Of a DNA stretch of 64,000 nucleotides, positions 5,487 to 54,435 are shown piece after piece. The position numbers and the translations under genes are program-made. Origin of the DNA: a virus. Its lineage: Duplodnaviria; Heunggongvirae; Uroviricota; Caudoviricetes. The stretch is taken from positions 5,513 to 69,512 of IMG/VR virus record IMGVR_UViG_3300028388_003891; one strand, given 5' to 3'. How positions within the stretch are numbered: the first letter of the stretch is position 1; the number at the start of each line of letters is the position of its first letter. The notes under the pieces were generated by a model. That model was not told where the DNA came from. It saw only the letters and a list, made by a program, of their open reading frames with translations, and did no database searches.

Positions 5487-5528
5487 CACCATAACTACAA
5501 AGCTAGTCGGCAACGGAGATAATAAAAA

Positions 5529-7328
5529 ATGCCAACCATCACAGATCCGGATCTGTTGAATGATTCCGCTGTAAACACTGGGAGCAATGAAGTATTCATT
5601 GACCCGGCGTTACGCACGATTCGCCTTAACAACGGTTCCAATAACTTAGATGAAACGGGCGTAACAGGTCAGGCTCTTTACTCCTTTCTCAAAGAAGAAT
5701 GGAAAGATGATACCAAAGGCAAGAACCTAATCGCGTATCCGTTCCCCCTTGTCGCAATTACCCCAGAGCAATTTGAATTTCGATCTGGTTGGCAGCCTGC
5801 CAACGACAGCTCACGCAACTTGATTCGCAATGCTGGCTGGAGAGAATTTGCCACTAACAACACCACTCTGAACCGAGAGTACATTGGTACAATTTCGCTC
5901 GGTTCAATCGACGGCGACCAATCTCAAACGGGAGGCGGCGATCAGGATTTTGCGTACTACGCGTTCTTCGATACAAGTGGTGCACCAGTTGCTGGTCCTT
6001 TCAACTTTGATTTCCCAGGACCAGTCAACCAGCCTGTACAAACGTACGACAGTTCCTCTTACGACTACCGTACCAACATTCTAACGATGTTCATCCGTCA
6101 ACCTGGAAAAACGTATGATCAGCAATCTACGGTTCAGATTGGTATTCCAGCTGGTGCAACACTACCGTATAACACCCAGCGTTTCCCTCTACAGGAAGCT
6201 GTTGATCTGAACGTAACTGTGTCAGATGCCACGATTGTAGCTAATGAAGGCGCTGGTGAAAAATACGACAGTAGCGATGTAAACGGCCCCACAATACAGT
6301 ACCTCAGCGACTCCGAGCTTTCTAATACGTTCGGCTATACGCAGGATCTTGTGGATGGTCCACACGGCTTTGGTATCAAGATCTCTGCAGAAGATGGAAC
6401 GGGTGGCTCTCTATCGCTGCAAGAGCTATATTCTTGGGTACAATACAAACTACGTCAAGAAGTTAATATCGAAGACAGCGCTGGATCTACCAAAGTTGGT
6501 AAACTGCAGGACCGCTTGCTACAGTTCGTTGGTCCTACCCTTGAAACCTTGAACGCTACAAACCTTGATGGTGGTGGCACCGGCACAGCAATTATCAACT
6601 TCTCAAACACCGACATCAACAACATTGGGCTTCGGGACAACACAGAAACTCTTCGTCCGTTCCCAATTCTGTCTTCTGGTACTCTTTCATTTTCTGATGA
6701 AATCGTACTTGACAGCGCCAATGCTTCGTACTTTGTTTTCTTTGAGTACACCAAATCTACAAGCGTTTCTGATTTGACAATTTCAGGTGTTGGTCCTTCA
6801 GCTGGCGATCCAGCTGTTGACAGTGCTGAATTTTCTTCATCAGCAACAGAACTGCCCCTACTTGCAGCTGATGATTATTTCCGTGTAACAGGTGCTTCCG
6901 ATCCAAACAACAACCAAGTGTGGCAAGTATCAGTATACCGTGACTCCAGCTCGTTCTCTGCTGTGACTTACGACGATCTTCCCGCAGCAAACGAAGGTCC
7001 GTTTGCCGGCACCATTCGAGAGCACCCAATCAATTCACCTGGAGCCTTGTTGGTAGACAGTGCAGGTACAACAACACCAAATACAGGCGGAATCACCGGC
7101 ACGTTGACTGGCGGTATTTCATCTGTGGCATTCTCCTATGACTATACTAACAACAGTCAAGGGGGTCGACCAAGTGGTGTTAACGCAGACACGGTTAACA
7201 TCTTGATCCGTGCTATTGGCTTGGATAATGGATCGTTTGTGGAACTGGCAGGTCAGACAATTACTGATCAAGCACAGACGTACTCAATTATCTCGGCTAT
7301 TGAGCGTAACTACGACAACCCAGCGTAA
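5529..7328 (+). CDS. hypothetical virion protein (599 aa)
   Basis: long ORF in head/tail late region, near-consensus late promoter CATAAATA at 5479-5486, Ser/Thr/Gly-rich. Confidence 0.5.
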   Translation: MPTITDPDLLNDSAVNTGSNEVFIDPALRTIRLNNGSNNLDETGVTGQALYSFLKEEWKDDTKGKNLIAYPFPLVAITPEQFEFRSGWQPANDSSRNLIRNAGWREFATNNTTLNREYIGTISLGSIDGDQSQTGGGDQDFAYYAFFDTSGAPVAGPFNFDFPGPVNQPVQTYDSSSYDYRTNILTMFIRQPGKTYDQQSTVQIGIPAGATLPYNTQRFPLQEAVDLNVTVSDATIVANEGAGEKYDSSDVNGPTIQYLSDSELSNTFGYTQDLVDGPHGFGIKISAEDGTGGSLSLQELYSWVQYKLRQEVNIEDSAGSTKVGKLQDRLLQFVGPTLETLNATNLDGGGTGTAIINFSNTDINNIGLRDNTETLRPFPILSSGTLSFSDEIVLDSANASYFVFFEYTKSTSVSDLTISGVGPSAGDPAVDSAEFSSSATELPLLAADDYFRVTGASDPNNNQVWQVSVYRDSSSFSAVTYDDLPAANEGPFAGTIREHPINSPGALLVDSAGTTTPNTGGITGTLTGGISSVAFSYDYTNNSQGGRPSGVNADTVNILIRAIGLDNGSFVELAGQTITDQAQTYSIISAIERNYDNPA

Positions 7329-28947: not shown

Positions 28948-29468
28948 TGAGTCTGCGTAATATAGCCCTTTCCACCAATCCAGCAGAGTTGTCTCATACT
29001 GAAGAGGATGATGTTCAGCCAAATGCTGTCGACATACGTCTCGATAAAGTGTGGCAAATTTCCAACGAGACGTTTACCCTCAGTGATAGTCACAAGGGGC
29101 ATCGTGGGTCCGAAGAGCTGTCGTTTACCCGTCATTTCCCCGACCATGAAGGCGAATGGATCGATCTATATCCAGGCAGCTATGAGTTTACCGCTAGAGG
29201 TACTGTGCTAGTTCCGCCTGGGTTCGCTGGGTGGGTAGTTACTCGAAGCACACTGAACCGTAATGGTGTCTTCATAACATCCGGCCTGTACGATAGCGGC
29301 TATCATGGAGTAATGGCCGGCGTAATACATGTATCTTGCGGTCCCTTTCTGGTTCAGCGAGGAACACGCATTGGTCAGTTTATACTTGTCGACGCTGAAA
29401 CATCTCATCAGTACGATGGCGATTACGGTTTGGGTAAAAAGCACGATGATAAGTACACGACTGCGTAG
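28947..29468 (+). CDS. dCTP deaminase/dUTPase-fold protein
   Basis: AVDIRLDKVW...VLVPPGFAGWVVTRSTLNRNGVFITSGLYDSGYHG...IGQFIL matches Dcd/dUTPase fold pattern. Confidence 0.6.
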   Translation: MSLRNIALSTNPAELSHTEEDDVQPNAVDIRLDKVWQISNETFTLSDSHKGHRGSEELSFTRHFPDHEGEWIDLYPGSYEFTARGTVLVPPGFAGWVVTRSTLNRNGVFITSGLYDSGYHGVMAGVIHVSCGPFLVQRGTRIGQFILVDAETSHQYDGDYGLGKKHDDKYTTA

Positions 29469-29576
29469 CACAATCTGGTAGTGCGCTGAACTCTAAATTC
29501 ATGAGATAACGGTTCAAATCCGTTCGCAGTCACCATATATACACCGCAATGACTAATGACTTTAAGGGAAACAAAC

Positions 29577-30799: not shown

Positions 30800-31104
30800 A
30801 TACGAGCAGTTGAACAACTACCCACCTCGATTTTAGACATTGGAACCAGAGTCCCAATGACGGACAAACCAGTCGCGGCACAGGCGATCAATATTGTTGT
30901 AGAACTGCGTGAAGCTCGAGATCATGAACTGAAACGATTGACTCGTCGCCAGTTGCAAAGTATCATTGATAAAGAAACTGCCCGACAAACACAGCGGAGG
31001 ACTACATCTGATGGCTATTGGCGAAGATCGTGATCCAATCTATGGAATAGTGTACGCATCTTGTACGCTAGTGATTGGCGGCCCGATTCTTGCATTTGCT
31101 GGTG

Positions 31105-31452
31105 GGGCGTTCCATTAACGAAATTCGATGAAGCACAACGAACGGTGCTAAGGACGGGGGTTCGATTCCCCCCACCTCCACCAAAAAGCATACTCTTCCC
31201 GCGAAAGCGGTGCGATGGAAGTCGTCATAATCAACCAAGGGAGTATGCTTTTTGATGGGGGTGCACTGGCTTCGACTTGGACTTAATAGCTTGTGTGGAG
31301 AATAGGTGCGGAAGCTACCTTAAACGCAACAAAGTAAAAAAGTGACGCAGCTAATGATGCTGTGTATGATGTGGCTCTAGCAGCCTGATCATACTGGGGA
31401 TTGACTATCCTTATTATCCAATAAGTCCGGGCAGGTTAAACCTGCCCGTTTT
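31105..31452 (+). ncRNA. ssrA: two-piece (circularly permuted) tmRNA gene (ssrA): acceptor piece ending CCA at 31183, excised stem-loop 31184-31256, coding piece from 31257 with tag ORF 31347-31388, terminator 31429-31452
   Basis: GGGGG-TTCGATT-CCCCC T-arm + CACCTCC-A-CCA; perfect 12-bp inverted repeat AAAAGCATACTC/GAGTATGCTTTT; GGGGGTG...GGCTTCGAC 5' piece with G3 opposite U70; tag GCAGCTAATGATGCTGTGTATGATGTGGCTCTAGCAGCCTGA = AANDAVYDVALAA; 5' boundary approximate. Confidence 0.75.
31429..31452 (+). terminator. rho-independent terminator ending tmRNA coding piece
   Basis: GGGCAGG-TTAAA-CCTGCCC + GTTTT. Confidence 0.75.
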
Positions 31453-31553
31453 AGTTTTCTAATTGTAAACGGCCCCTTCTGTTGAATTACGTTTGATAGA
31501 TACGTGACTGTATGGTTGCTGAAAAACAGCAATCCTTTGAAATGGAGATCATT

Positions 31554-49957: not shown

Positions 49958-50113
49958 TTTTCGATTGCCTGGTTGATAAACGACACTAACGGACTATATA
50001 CTATCACTATGTTGACGAATTTACATACAACAATACTCCCCCAAAGTAATCGCCCACTGATTGGCGGTTGGGGATCGTATTGTGTGGCGTTTGAGCGCAA
50101 AGATCCCAACATA

Positions 50114-50169
50114 GTCCCCCTGATGAGTCTTATCGGAGACGAAACGCAAAGCTAAAGTAGCGTCGGGGA
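50114..50169 (+). ncRNA. type I hammerhead ribozyme motif (HHR-1)
   Basis: GUCCCC(stem I 3')-CUGAUGA-GUCU/UAUCGG/AGAC(stem II)-GAAA-CGC...GCG(stem III)-UC^-GGGGA(stem I 5'); predicted cleavage after C50164. Confidence 0.6.
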
Positions 50170-50275
50170 AGAGAGAAGAAAATCTTCCCCCAGCTACCAC
50201 GAACTGTGAGCGTGGGAATCGCGGAGGGCAACAAGTCTCTTGTGACGGAAACCGATGCGACTTATCACAAATTAA

Positions 50276-50361
50276 CGCGGGATATACAAGCGGTCAACGT
50301 GATAGGGCTCATAACCCTATACCTTAGTGTTTCGTGGGTTCGAATCCCACTCCCGCAACCA
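50276..50361 (+). tRNA. initiator tRNA-fMet-like (CAU), atypical 14-nt variable region
   Basis: acceptor CGCGGGA/TCCCGCA with C1-A72 mismatch, anticodon stem-loop GGG-CTCATAA-CCC, 3' end CCCGCAACCA identical to E. coli tRNAfMet; T-arm GTGGG-TTCGAAT-CCCAC. Confidence 0.55.
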
Positions 50362-50734: not shown

Positions 50735-50992
50735 ATGTTGACCGTAAGGCGCGTTCTAAGCGAGGATATCGCAAACACAGGAGAATTGATAATGGGTGTT
50801 GAGAACACAAATGTGGATACCAAAGAGCTCATGGTCGAGATTGATCTTGAACTTGGATCACTTGCGGCGCGGATCGCAACCGGCCTAACGTACAGCGAAA
50901 TCGTCGCGTTCGTTGAAATGATTGATAGCGAGGTATCCGACACCGAGTTTACGGACCAACTGATTAACGCCGTCCTACGCCTCAATGATTAA
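50735..50992 (+). CDS. hypothetical protein (85 aa)
   Basis: ORF inside tRNA array. Confidence 0.3.
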   Translation: MLTVRRVLSEDIANTGELIMGVENTNVDTKELMVEIDLELGSLAARIATGLTYSEIVAFVEMIDSEVSDTEFTDQLINAVLRLND

Positions 50993-51044
50993 CTGCCCTG
51001 ATGAGTCTTACAGGAGACGAAACGCGCTGATAGCGCGTCGGCAG
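50993..51044 (+). ncRNA. type I hammerhead ribozyme (HHR-2) whose cleavage site is the 5' end of the downstream tRNA
   Basis: CUGCC-CUGAUGA-GUCU/UACAGG/AGAC-GAAA-CGCGC/UGAUA/GCGCG-UC^-GGCAG; cleavage after C51039. Confidence 0.75.
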
Positions 51045-51121
51045 AGTACACCCGTAACTGGTAGCGGCCCGCACTGTAACTGCGCATAACGTTGGGGGTT
51101 CGAATCCCTCCTCTGCCACCA
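51040..51121 (+). tRNA. tRNA with GUA anticodon (Tyr-type), 8-nt variable region, irregular D region
   Basis: acceptor GGCAGAG/CTCTGCC, anticodon stem CGCA/TGCG loop CTGTAAC, T-arm GGGGG-TTCGAAT-CCCTC, A73, CCA. Confidence 0.5.
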
Positions 51122-53101: not shown

Positions 53102-53470
53102 TTGCATCAAGGATGCTGCAAAGGCGTTGATCGCGAATGCTACCTAATGGCAGCAGACAATCCAGACTACGACATAACGATTTACTCGTACCCACCAATT
53201 AATGATCACTATGCGATCAAGTGCCTCGGTCATGTCAATTACAAGCCACAGCCGTTCCTTGTACGCGATCGTGCTCTGGTAGATGCGGCGGATATTCTGC
53301 TATCGATGCCACTTACTGATTACGAGACATTTCGCAGTGGTACATGGTACACTACACGCTATGCTCTGCAGCAGGACAAGCCTGTCGTACTGATTCAACC
53401 TAACGGCACTAGTGTGCCTGCTGATGAAATTGAGAGATACTTACTACCTGGAAAATGGGGTGAAAGGTAA
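53102..53470 (+). CDS. hypothetical protein (122 aa)
   Basis: ORF. Confidence 0.4.
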   Translation: MHQGCCKGVDRECYLMAADNPDYDITIYSYPPINDHYAIKCLGHVNYKPQPFLVRDRALVDAADILLSMPLTDYETFRSGTWYTTRYALQQDKPVVLIQPNGTSVPADEIERYLLPGKWGER

Positions 53471-54435
53471 TGGAATTCATCAAATACAGCTCGATTGAGA
53501 ATCACTACCGTGAGAAGGTTGTCGACTGGTATCGTGAAAATGGATTAGAAAACGTCGGATGGATCTTGACGGAGAAGATCCATGGCGCTAACTTTTCTTT
53601 CTGGTGCAACAGCAGCGAAGTCAAGGTCGCATCTCGTAACCAATGGGTCGACAGCACATTCTATAGCTGTCAGGACATCATCGACGCGTACACGCCCGTT
53701 GTGCTAGAGCTCGCTACTTTCTTCCCCAACAGCACTGTAGCTGTGTATGGGGAGCTGTACGGACCCGGTATTCAGAAGGGGGTCAATTACGGCGACAAAA
53801 AAGATTTCGTTGCCTTCGACATTCGAGTTGACGGATACTTCCTAGATCGTAATAAAGTACATGTGTACATCGCTGGTGCAAACCAGCTGACATTACAAAA
53901 GCACGGTCAGAGGTCCACCTTGATGGACGTTGTCCCTATTGTTGGCTCGACAGTGTCACTAACACAAGTGCTTGAGTTTGATAACGAGTTTGTATCTGTG
54001 CTTGGCCGTCTCAATGGTGTCGACGACGATGCCAACCTTGCTGAGGGATTCATTGCAACGCCAGTCGGCAAAGCGTACCAACGCATTGGCAGCGACCGTG
54101 TGATCCTCAAATCGAAAGGTGAAAAGTGGACAGAGAAAAGCAAGAAGGTAAAGACGCCTCGTGCTCCTGTTACTGAGCACCCACTGACATCAACGGTTGA
54201 GCAGTATGTCAACACCAACCGTGTCGATGCTGTCACAAGTAAGATGGGCCCGTTGACTCCAAAGGACTTTGGTCGGATCATTAGGGCTGTTTGTGATGAT
54301 GTCATTGATGACATGGTGAAGGACGGTGATGTTCGTAGCTGCTGGCGCGATGACGAAGAGACGAAAGACCTTGGCAAGGTTGTTAACAAAGTGGTAGTGC
54401 CTTTCCTCAAGAAAGAGCTGCTACCGACGTTGTAA
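53470..54435 (+). CDS. RNA ligase 2 (T4 Rnl2/gp24.1-like)
   Basis: KYSSIENHY and adenylation motif KIHGANFSF match T4 Rnl2 N-terminus; nucleotidyltransferase plus C-terminal domain size. Confidence 0.75.
   Translation: MEFIKYSSIENHYREKVVDWYRENGLENVGWILTEKIHGANFSFWCNSSEVKVASRNQWVDSTFYSCQDIIDAYTPVVLELATFFPNSTVAVYGELYGPGIQKGVNYGDKKDFVAFDIRVDGYFLDRNKVHVYIAGANQLTLQKHGQRSTLMDVVPIVGSTVSLTQVLEFDNEFVSVLGRLNGVDDDANLAEGFIATPVGKAYQRIGSDRVILKSKGEKWTEKSKKVKTPRAPVTEHPLTSTVEQYVNTNRVDAVTSKMGPLTPKDFGRIIRAVCDDVIDDMVKDGDVRSCWRDDEETKDLGKVVNKVVVPFLKKELLPTL

Follow-up and report, generated by a model that had tools for sequence, protein, structure and literature searches.

A stretch of 64,000 nucleotides from a virus of the Caudoviricetes (IMG/VR record IMGVR_UViG_3300028388_003891, positions 5,513 to 69,512; the whole stretch is referred to below as the window) was analysed, and a complete type I hammerhead ribozyme was read from the sequence at positions 50993-51039, directly upstream of a transfer RNA (tRNA) gene for tyrosine, the first five nucleotides of which (51040-51044) close stem I of the ribozyme. 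It is considered likely that the two form a natural ribozyme-tRNA fusion, in which a near-minimal type I hammerhead serves as the 5' leader of tRNA-Tyr and is predicted to cut co-transcriptionally, releasing a leaderless tRNA-Tyr with a 5'-hydroxyl (5'-OH) end. A hammerhead fused to a tRNA had been proposed for this locus in a first-pass annotation made from the sequence alone, and that reading is supported by everything that could be computed, with cleavage itself standing as a prediction.

Anatomy and predicted fold of the hammerhead element

The element lies on the + strand and begins with the 5' strand of stem I, CUGCC (50993-50997), which pairs with GGCAG at 51040-51044. This is followed by the catalytic core sequence CUGAUGA (C3, U4, G5, A6, U7, G8 and A9; 50998-51004), which was unchanged in 16 of 16 aligned relatives, and by the stem II hairpin GUCU-UACAGG-AGAC (51005-51018), the fourth pair of which shows a U-A to C-G covariation. 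Core nucleotides G12, A13 and A14 (51019-51021) come next and were invariant in the 16 relatives; they lead into the stem III hairpin A15.1-CGCGC-UGAUA-GCGCG-U16.1 (51022-51038), in which four of five pairs covary and the A15.1-U16.1 pair (A51022-U51038) is invariant. The last nucleotide of the ribozyme is C17 (51039), which agrees with the requirement for a nucleotide other than G (H17) on the 5' side of the scissile bond. On direct reading every position of the conserved type I core (C3-A9, G12-A14, A15.1-U16.1 and H17) was present, as had been claimed in the first-pass annotation, and none of them varied among the 16 relatives. The coordinates that had been given for each part of the element all matched when the sequence was re-read, and only the label of CUGCC as the 3' strand of stem I was wrong, a trivial swap, as this strand is 5'-proximal in the transcript.

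The predicted scissile bond falls between C17 (51039) and G1.1 (51040; hammerhead numbering). The earlier proposal that the cut lands on nucleotide 1 of the tRNA (G51040) was borne out, with the tRNA match in Rfam starting at 51040 and all seven acceptor pairs formed. The minimum-energy fold of positions 50990-51046 was a three-way junction (-21.1 kcal/mol, z = -3.2), and in both this fold and the pairing across the family stem I is open and the other two stems are closed, the helix arrangement of a type I hammerhead. In most members of the family loop II has the form U-A-N-N-R-G and tRNA nucleotides 6-9 read AGUA or AGCG, and no covarying contact could be told apart from shared ancestry. A pairing between loop II and the anticodon loop (UACAG with CUGUA, which are complementary in the window) was also considered and was rejected, as it is lacking in relatives.

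The tRNA-Tyr gene

The tRNA-Tyr(GUA) gene occupies positions 51040-51121 (+ strand). The Rfam tRNA model RF00005 called a tRNA at exactly 51040-51118 (40.4 bits, threshold 29), and the anticodon loop CUGUAAC, with GUA at 51076-51078, identifies it as tRNA-Tyr; neither this identity nor the restriction to tyrosine described below had been noted in the first-pass annotation. The acceptor stem is formed by GGCAGAG (51040-51046) and CUCUGCC (51111-51117), with G51040 opposite C51117 as the G1-C72 pair, and is followed by A73 (51118) and an encoded CCA (51119-51121), all of which had been described correctly.

The body of the tRNA is atypical. The connector from the acceptor stem to the D stem is 5 nt long, the variable region (51086-51093) is 8 nt long and has no stem, and the long variable arm (class II) that characterises bacterial tRNA-Tyr is absent. 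The consensus cloverleaf of 10 relatives nevertheless showed compensatory changes in 13 of 20 pairs. A further alignment (A4) of this short form of phage tRNA-Tyr, which covered 51047-51067 of the window and its relatives, showed five connector nucleotides compared to the usual two, together with a covarying D stem of 4 bp. ARAGORN called no tRNA at 51040-51121 when run on the window and also failed on 8 of the 20 hammerhead-fused tRNA-Tyr genes described below, the probable cause being that three more nucleotides than usual separate position 9 from the D stem; these failures indicate that phage tRNA-Tyr genes are under-annotated. No other tRNA-Tyr was found by ARAGORN in the tRNA island of the window, which comprises about 30 genes.

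Detection of the hammerhead with covariance models

A loose hammerhead consensus pattern gave two matches in the window compared to 1.5 expected from shuffled sequences, which is not significant alone. The Rfam hammerhead models all scored below threshold on the element (RF00163, 18.3 bits with a threshold of 34; RF03152, 19.4 bits with a threshold of 56.3), and no Rfam hammerhead family exceeded its threshold at 17 related loci. A search with RF00163 or RF00008 in Infernal had been suggested in the first-pass annotation as a check of the ribozyme, and its result would have looked like a failure.

A covariance model, designated R1, was therefore built from 15 hammerheads of other contigs, with none taken from the window. 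R1 scored 65.5 bits (E~5e-18) on the element (50990-51048) and identified exactly two hammerheads in the 64-kb window, the next match being a non-hammerhead with 10.4 bits. As this subfamily model scores more than 60 bits, the sub-threshold Rfam scores are not evidence of absence; they reflect the composition of the Rfam seed alignments and not the absence of a hammerhead. A whole subfamily of hammerheads is thus invisible at Rfam thresholds.

Covariation of the ribozyme and the tRNA

A MAFFT alignment of the full hammerhead and tRNA (A1) misaligned stem III and was replaced by a loop-trimmed alignment of 16 members (A2), which was used for covariation, and by an alignment of the hammerhead only (A3). 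Changes on both sides were found in 10 of 14 hammerhead pairs, spread over all three stems, and the covariation score was 0.682, compared to 0.234 for shuffled sequences and 0.06-0.12 when the pairing was slid out of register.

Stem I had changed on both sides in four of its five pairs across the 16 sequences, the variants including CUGCC/GGCAG, UCCGC/GCGGG, CUACC/GGUAG, CCUGC/GCAGG, CUCCC/GGGAG, CCAGC/GCUGG and UUGCC/GGCAA, among others. In the acceptor stem six of seven pairs covary, and stem I changes in step with the 3' strand of that stem, so that the upstream strand of stem I effectively copies tRNA positions 68-72. In the window CUGCC at 50993-50997 is identical to these positions, and the two strands compete to pair with G1-G5 of the tRNA. 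The earlier claim that the 5' acceptor strand doubles as one strand of stem I is upheld by compensatory changes in 19-20 independent phage sequences.

Distribution of the family and restriction to tRNA-Tyr

Relatives were sought by pattern scans which required only CUGAUGA(G), CGAAA and a generic T-loop, with the anticodon left unspecified. The scans covered IMG/VR, metagenomes (the matches listed) and one genome per species for 185,579 prokaryotic species. A structural filter, which retained loci with the predicted cut at tRNA nucleotide 1 and with 6-7 of 7 acceptor pairs, gave at least 16 distinct type I hammerheads cutting at tRNA nucleotide 1, and after R1 searches of all fetched loci the family comprised at least 48 distinct hammerheads. 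In at least 19 of these 48 the predicted cut lies at offset 0 from the tRNA (20 with locus L064, for which the register was set by eye), and in every such case the tRNA is tRNA-Tyr(GUA). Across the 18 contigs carrying exact fusions, 20 of 22 tRNA-Tyr genes were fused to a hammerhead compared to 0 of 194 other tRNA genes, among the matches listed. This restriction points to specific selection on one tRNA.

The fused tRNA-Tyr genes fall into four divergent subfamilies, with lengths from 77-79 nt, where the variable loop is short as in the window, up to 82-87 nt, where the normal long arm is present, and some of which have no encoded CCA. The long variable arm is retained in hammerhead-fused subfamilies other than that of the window (L019, L040, L042, L063, L081 and L116). 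The flanking open reading frames (ORFs) showed no similarity between loci at E < 1e-3, and the idea of a conserved flanking gene or mobile cassette was rejected; taken together with the four divergent subfamilies, this indicates that the association is not due to one recently spread cassette. The nearest relative of the window element, among the matches listed, was on a 1-kb metagenome contig (L123). The bacterial genomes (185,579 species representatives) yielded no exact fusion. In a BLAST search of INPHARED with four hammerhead-tRNA queries the matches in cultured phages covered the tRNA parts only, and no hammerhead was found in four isolate phages with a similar tRNA-Tyr.

Some loci carry several copies. 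Four tRNA-Tyr genes were found within 1.8 kb at L104 (769-1474), fused at 821 and 1140 and hammerhead-less at 1000 and 1390, and two tandem hammerhead-tRNA-Tyr units were found at L001 (6525 and 6674). The multiple copies suggest selection for tRNA-Tyr dosage.

At two loci, L023 (12257, - strand) and L153 (1701, + strand), type I hammerheads were found with the predicted cut at position -1 of tRNA-His. The nucleotide that is retained pairs with N73 (G-1:C73 and U-1:A73), giving the 8-bp acceptor stem typical of tRNA-His, and the predicted cut thus follows the mature end of the tRNA and not a fixed distance. At these loci the ribozyme would make the special end of tRNA-His. Other members were located 1-20 nt upstream of tRNAs for Gly, Asp, Cys, Arg or His, or before YrlA-like RNA or ORFs. 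As judged from these positions, the family overall is a predicted general phage RNA-processing module, of which exact tRNA fusion is a specialisation.

Predicted mechanism and alternative explanations

The pairing of stem I (G1-G5 with the upstream strand) and that of the acceptor stem (G1-G7 with the 3' strand) are mutually exclusive. In the minimum-energy fold of the full precursor the 7-bp acceptor stem, with its 3' strand at 51111-51117, was formed instead of stem I, and stems II and III were retained. In the mechanism predicted from these features, tRNA nucleotides 1-5 would pair, as they emerge during transcription, with the five nucleotides upstream of the core, forming stem I and the active three-way junction. 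The cut after C17 would leave a 2',3'-cyclic phosphate on the upstream RNA, that is on the 3' end of the preceding messenger RNA (mRNA), and a 5'-OH on G1 of the tRNA, in line with the established chemistry of hammerhead cleavage (PMC6765202). The 3' acceptor strand would be made ~70 nt later, and the 7-bp acceptor stem would then displace the 5-bp stem I, which would free the ribozyme, block re-ligation and render the cut irreversible. The tRNA would be leaderless in vivo, ribonuclease P (RNase P) would be unneeded, and the encoded CCA end would require 3' trimming only. If the mature 5' end is set by the ribozyme, the cut register should be conserved with compensatory changes and shifted for tRNA-His, as is observed.

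A number of points weigh against this reading. Stem I is only 5 bp long and no tertiary contact linking it to stem II was identified, and the intrinsic rate of cleavage may consequently be low; minimal hammerheads are slow at cellular Mg2+. As the equilibrium of the precursor favours the tRNA fold, cleavage must fall within a short transcriptional window or make use of breathing of the structure. RNase P would cut the same phosphate, and so the ribozyme could be redundant. Hammerhead-less tRNA-Tyr genes occur in the same or similar phages (two at L104, two at L006, and in Racecar, Alone3, Blueeyedbeauty and MarvelLand), and the members situated 4-20 nt upstream of a tRNA or before ORFs indicate that the family is not solely a maker of tRNA ends. 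Finally, the proportion of paired cells in the alignment (99.6%) is a figure partly built in by the pairing filter; the variety of pair types, the covariation and the cut register are not guaranteed by it.

Directly upstream of the ribozyme is an ORF of 85 amino acids with no Pfam match (50735-50992, + strand), the TAA stop codon of which (50990-50992) abuts the ribozyme; after the cut the hammerhead would remain as the 3' end of this mRNA, terminating in a 2',3'-cyclic phosphate. An ORF ends 0-14 nt before the hammerhead at five loci in all (the window, L063, L081, L116 and L123). Such an arrangement would suit a hammerhead for general transcript processing, which, like others in phage intergenic regions, cuts a polycistronic RNA, separates or stabilises the upstream mRNA and remains on its 3' end, the tRNA only lending a strand to stem I and RNase P carrying out tRNA maturation. 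Gene-flanking phage hammerheads are well documented (PMC3088659), and 20 of the 48 members, among the matches listed, have no tRNA within 40 nt, with several others lying 4-20 nt upstream of one. This explanation is nonetheless judged to be unlikely for the window element, as it does not account for the 19-20 cuts at offset 0 being all at tRNA-Tyr, with 0 of 194 other tRNAs fused, nor for the shift of the cut to -1 in tRNA-His; in addition, the flanking ORFs are not conserved, and hence no particular mRNA is served.

The mutually exclusive pairings, and the preference of the uncleaved full-length RNA for the tRNA fold, are also what would be seen in a regulated switch, where competition between stem I and the acceptor stem gates the supply of tRNA-Tyr (in response, for example, to Mg2+, the speed of transcription, temperature or the binding of a factor), and the cleavage of slow phage hammerheads has been proposed to be regulated (PMC3088659). 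A switch is regarded as quite unlikely. The element has neither an aptamer-like domain nor a conserved additional one, the loops of stems II and III vary in sequence and length, and RNase P would still accept as substrate a precursor that was uncleaved and had its acceptor stem folded, making the gate leaky. That the element is a relic without activity, or resembles a hammerhead by chance, as might be supposed from the sub-threshold scores of all Rfam hammerhead models, the lack of enrichment of the loose consensus pattern in the window and a second copy in the window that seems to precede a decayed tRNA, is highly improbable given the 65.5 bits from an independent covariance model and an invariant core with compensatory changes in three stems across ~20 divergent sequences.

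A possible link with anti-phage defence

If the hammerhead does set tRNA-Tyr's 5' end, the restriction to this one tRNA calls for an explanation. The defence systems Septu/PtuAB and retron-Eco7 cut tRNA-Tyr at a site in the variable loop, and phages escape by strong expression of their own tRNA-Tyr, by amplification of its gene or by a variant loop (PMC11555353, PMC13096335). The window tRNA-Tyr resembles such counter-defence tRNA-Tyr in being phage-borne and in having an unusual variable loop, and some hammerhead loci carry multiple copies; no ribozyme is reported for the tRNA-Tyr of T5 and T6, unlike that of the window. A self-processing cassette that supplies tRNA-Tyr rapidly and independently of the host, with an altered variable loop, would fit an arms race of this kind and is put forward as a hypothesis. 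The output of the cassette would be immediate and in a fixed ratio, and any transcript, mRNAs among them, would give rise to it. Evasion of host nucleases or poor recognition by RNase P could be helped by the unusual 5'-OH end or by the altered tRNA core, and a tRNA altered so as to serve RNase P poorly as a substrate would also fit such an arms race.

The fuller proposal, that a cis-catalysed 5' end independent of RNase P is reserved for tRNA-Tyr because tRNA-cleaving immunity (Septu/PtuAB, retron-Eco7) targets this tRNA, and that the cassette delivers a resistant 5'-OH tRNA-Tyr, is tentative and rather doubtful, and the circumstantial nature of the link to defence counts against it. The restriction to tRNA-Tyr is directly testable against tRNA-Tyr-cleaving defence systems.

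A second hammerhead in the window and other members of the family

The second hammerhead identified by R1 in the window, which was not mentioned in the first-pass annotation, belongs to the same family and is located at 50115-50164 (+ strand), where it reads UCCCC / CUGAUGA / GUCU-UAUCGG-AGAC / GAAA / CGC-AAAGCUAAAGUA-GCG / UC. Its core and stem II are nearly identical to those of the first copy. It scored 64.3 bits with R1 (E~1e-17, match 50112-50173) and 26.8 bits with RF00163, and its predicted cut is after C50164. The predicted 3' product (50165-50199, + strand) is a hairpin, GGGGAAGA-(10 nt)-UCUUCCCC, followed by CAGCUACCA. The strands of this hairpin are identical to those of the acceptor stem of the hammerhead-fused tRNA-Tyr of locus L044 (GGGGAAG/CUUCCCC), and no tRNA body was found after the second hammerhead with ARAGORN or Rfam. 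The second copy is probably a decayed duplicate of a hammerhead-tRNA-Tyr unit from which the tRNA body has been lost, and the tandem duplicates at other loci are consistent with this; alternatively, 50165-50199 may be a functional minihelix RNA. A tRNA(CAU) at 50276-50361, which lies 111 nt downstream of the second cut, has the hallmarks of a bacterial initiator tRNA (a C1xA72 mismatch and an anticodon stem with three G-C pairs at its base) and an unusually long variable region of ~13 nt.

Several further loci were observed in the searches. At L014 (6029-6224, on the same contig as L084) the predicted cut is at 6085, 11 nt upstream of a YrlA RNA (RF02553, 69.7 bits), a Y RNA-like RNA with a tRNA-like domain; L007, L077 and L038 resemble L014. 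Hammerheads of the family may thus process other tRNA-like phage RNAs too. At L088 (1847-2348, - strand) a hammerhead lies directly downstream of a GOLLD RNA (RF02032, 160.9 bits) in a phage tRNA cluster. Weak R1 matches of 21-38 bits were obtained at L132 (710-758 and 982-1029) and L178 (5446-5487, 5868-5912 and 6845-6890); these have a normal core and stem II, with GAAACAGAA in place of the stem III hairpin, and one of the L132 matches abuts a tRNA-Tyr. They may represent a hammerhead variant with a minimal stem III or one formed in trans.

Other candidates were set aside. A conserved element, UUAUUGCUUAUC-CUGAUGAC-(N11)-CCGAAAAGCAUA, abuts the tRNA 5' end at L016, L028, L035 and L039 (for example L035 4818-4911, anticodon UGU, Thr). 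Neither the structural filter nor R1 recognised a hammerhead there, and this CTGATGAC...CGAAAAGCATA element upstream of tRNA-Thr was rejected as a hammerhead of this family, as were pattern matches overlapping the T-loop (L009, L013 and others). The match at L163 was a type III permutation before an ORF.

Genomic context

The window belongs to a T4-like myovirus, with genes for the gp20 portal, gp23 capsid protein, sheath, UvsW, clamp loader, family B polymerase and UvsX, and it also holds the large tRNA island and a permuted transfer-messenger RNA (tmRNA). No close relative of the window was found among isolate phages. A gene for a T4 Rnl2-like RNA ligase is located inside the tRNA island (53470-54435, + strand; PF09414 1.2e-17, PF18043 2.9e-13). 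It is regarded as context only for the predicted 5'-OH end. No polynucleotide kinase was found among the window ORFs scanned, and no syntenic relatives were found in viral contigs when they were sought through the ligase. In Streptomyces phage Alone3 an RNA ligase also adjoins tRNA-Tyr.

The permuted two-piece tmRNA at 31123-31388 (31091-31479 in ARAGORN) scored 95.2 bits with RF04321, and its tag peptide is DAANDAVYDVALAA. The two-piece form of tmRNA is typical of Alphaproteobacteria, of some Betaproteobacteria and of cyanobacteria, and the tmRNA is therefore a clue to the host; the best matches for tRNAs of the window were in phages of Ruegeria, Sinorhizobium and Synechococcus. At 29459-29535 a tRNA labelled Pyl by ARAGORN has the anticodon CUA and is a candidate amber suppressor.

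Comparison with known systems

Searches of full-text literature, in which most subscription journals are lacking, found neither a natural hammerhead described as setting the 5' end of a tRNA nor a restriction to tRNA-Tyr, so that an earlier report is possible. The element has in common with other type I hammerheads (RF00163; phage and prophage examples in PMC3088659) the core, the three-way junction, the open stem I, the GUC/GUA cleavage triplet and the phage setting. Those described from phages lie beside protein genes (Perreault et al. 2011, PMC3088659), whereas in the window element the 3' strand of a stem I of 5 bp is the tRNA acceptor strand, and no loop-loop contact is evident. It also falls below all Rfam hammerhead thresholds, although its core and fold place it in the hammerhead class.

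Theta ribozymes are minimal ribozymes resembling that of hepatitis delta virus (HDV) and are found beside tRNAs of gut Caudoviricetes (Kienbeck et al. 2024, PMC10879173, a paper which makes no mention of hammerheads). Like the window element they are small and self-cleaving, act in cis beside a phage tRNA and are proposed to give a tRNA end free of host RNases. Theta ribozymes have an HDV-like fold, stand on the 3' side, remove the trailer and are linked to suppressor tRNAs and recoding, whereas the window element has a hammerhead fold, stands on the 5' side, would do the job of RNase P and is found in exact fusion with tRNA-Tyr only. A hammerhead fold 5' of the tRNA, and not a nested double-pseudoknot HDV-like fold 3' of it, excludes the element from the theta class.

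RNase P, whether RNA-based or protein-only, is considered to make the 5' ends of tRNAs near-universally; it acts in trans, by hydrolysis, and leaves a 5'-phosphate. In Nanoarchaeum equitans tRNAs are leaderless and transcribed from +1, so 5' ends made without RNase P exist in nature. The mature 5' boundary is the same in both of these systems and in the window, where it is predicted to arise by transesterification in cis, leaving a 5'-OH. If this is true, a ribozyme within the precursor would be a new natural exception to 5' maturation by RNase P and the 5' counterpart of the theta ribozymes.

The nearest parallel is synthetic. Fechter et al. (1998) reportedly devised the 'transzyme', a hammerhead-tRNA fusion for in vitro transcription. 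The tRNA released from a transzyme has a 5'-OH and, in an E. coli extract, is aminoacylated and takes part in translation (PMC3675464); a 5'-OH end is therefore compatible with tRNA function. The two designs are near-identical, each having a leader and then a stem I of 5-6 bp made with the opening nucleotides of the tRNA, followed by CUGAUGA, a short stem II, GAAA, a hairpin for stem III and a GUC|nucleotide 1 junction. The transzyme is man-made and serves to avoid the constraints of the T7 promoter, whereas the window element is natural and evolutionarily conserved; the natural cassettes would be ready-made, evolution-tuned 'transzymes' for tRNA expression from any promoter.

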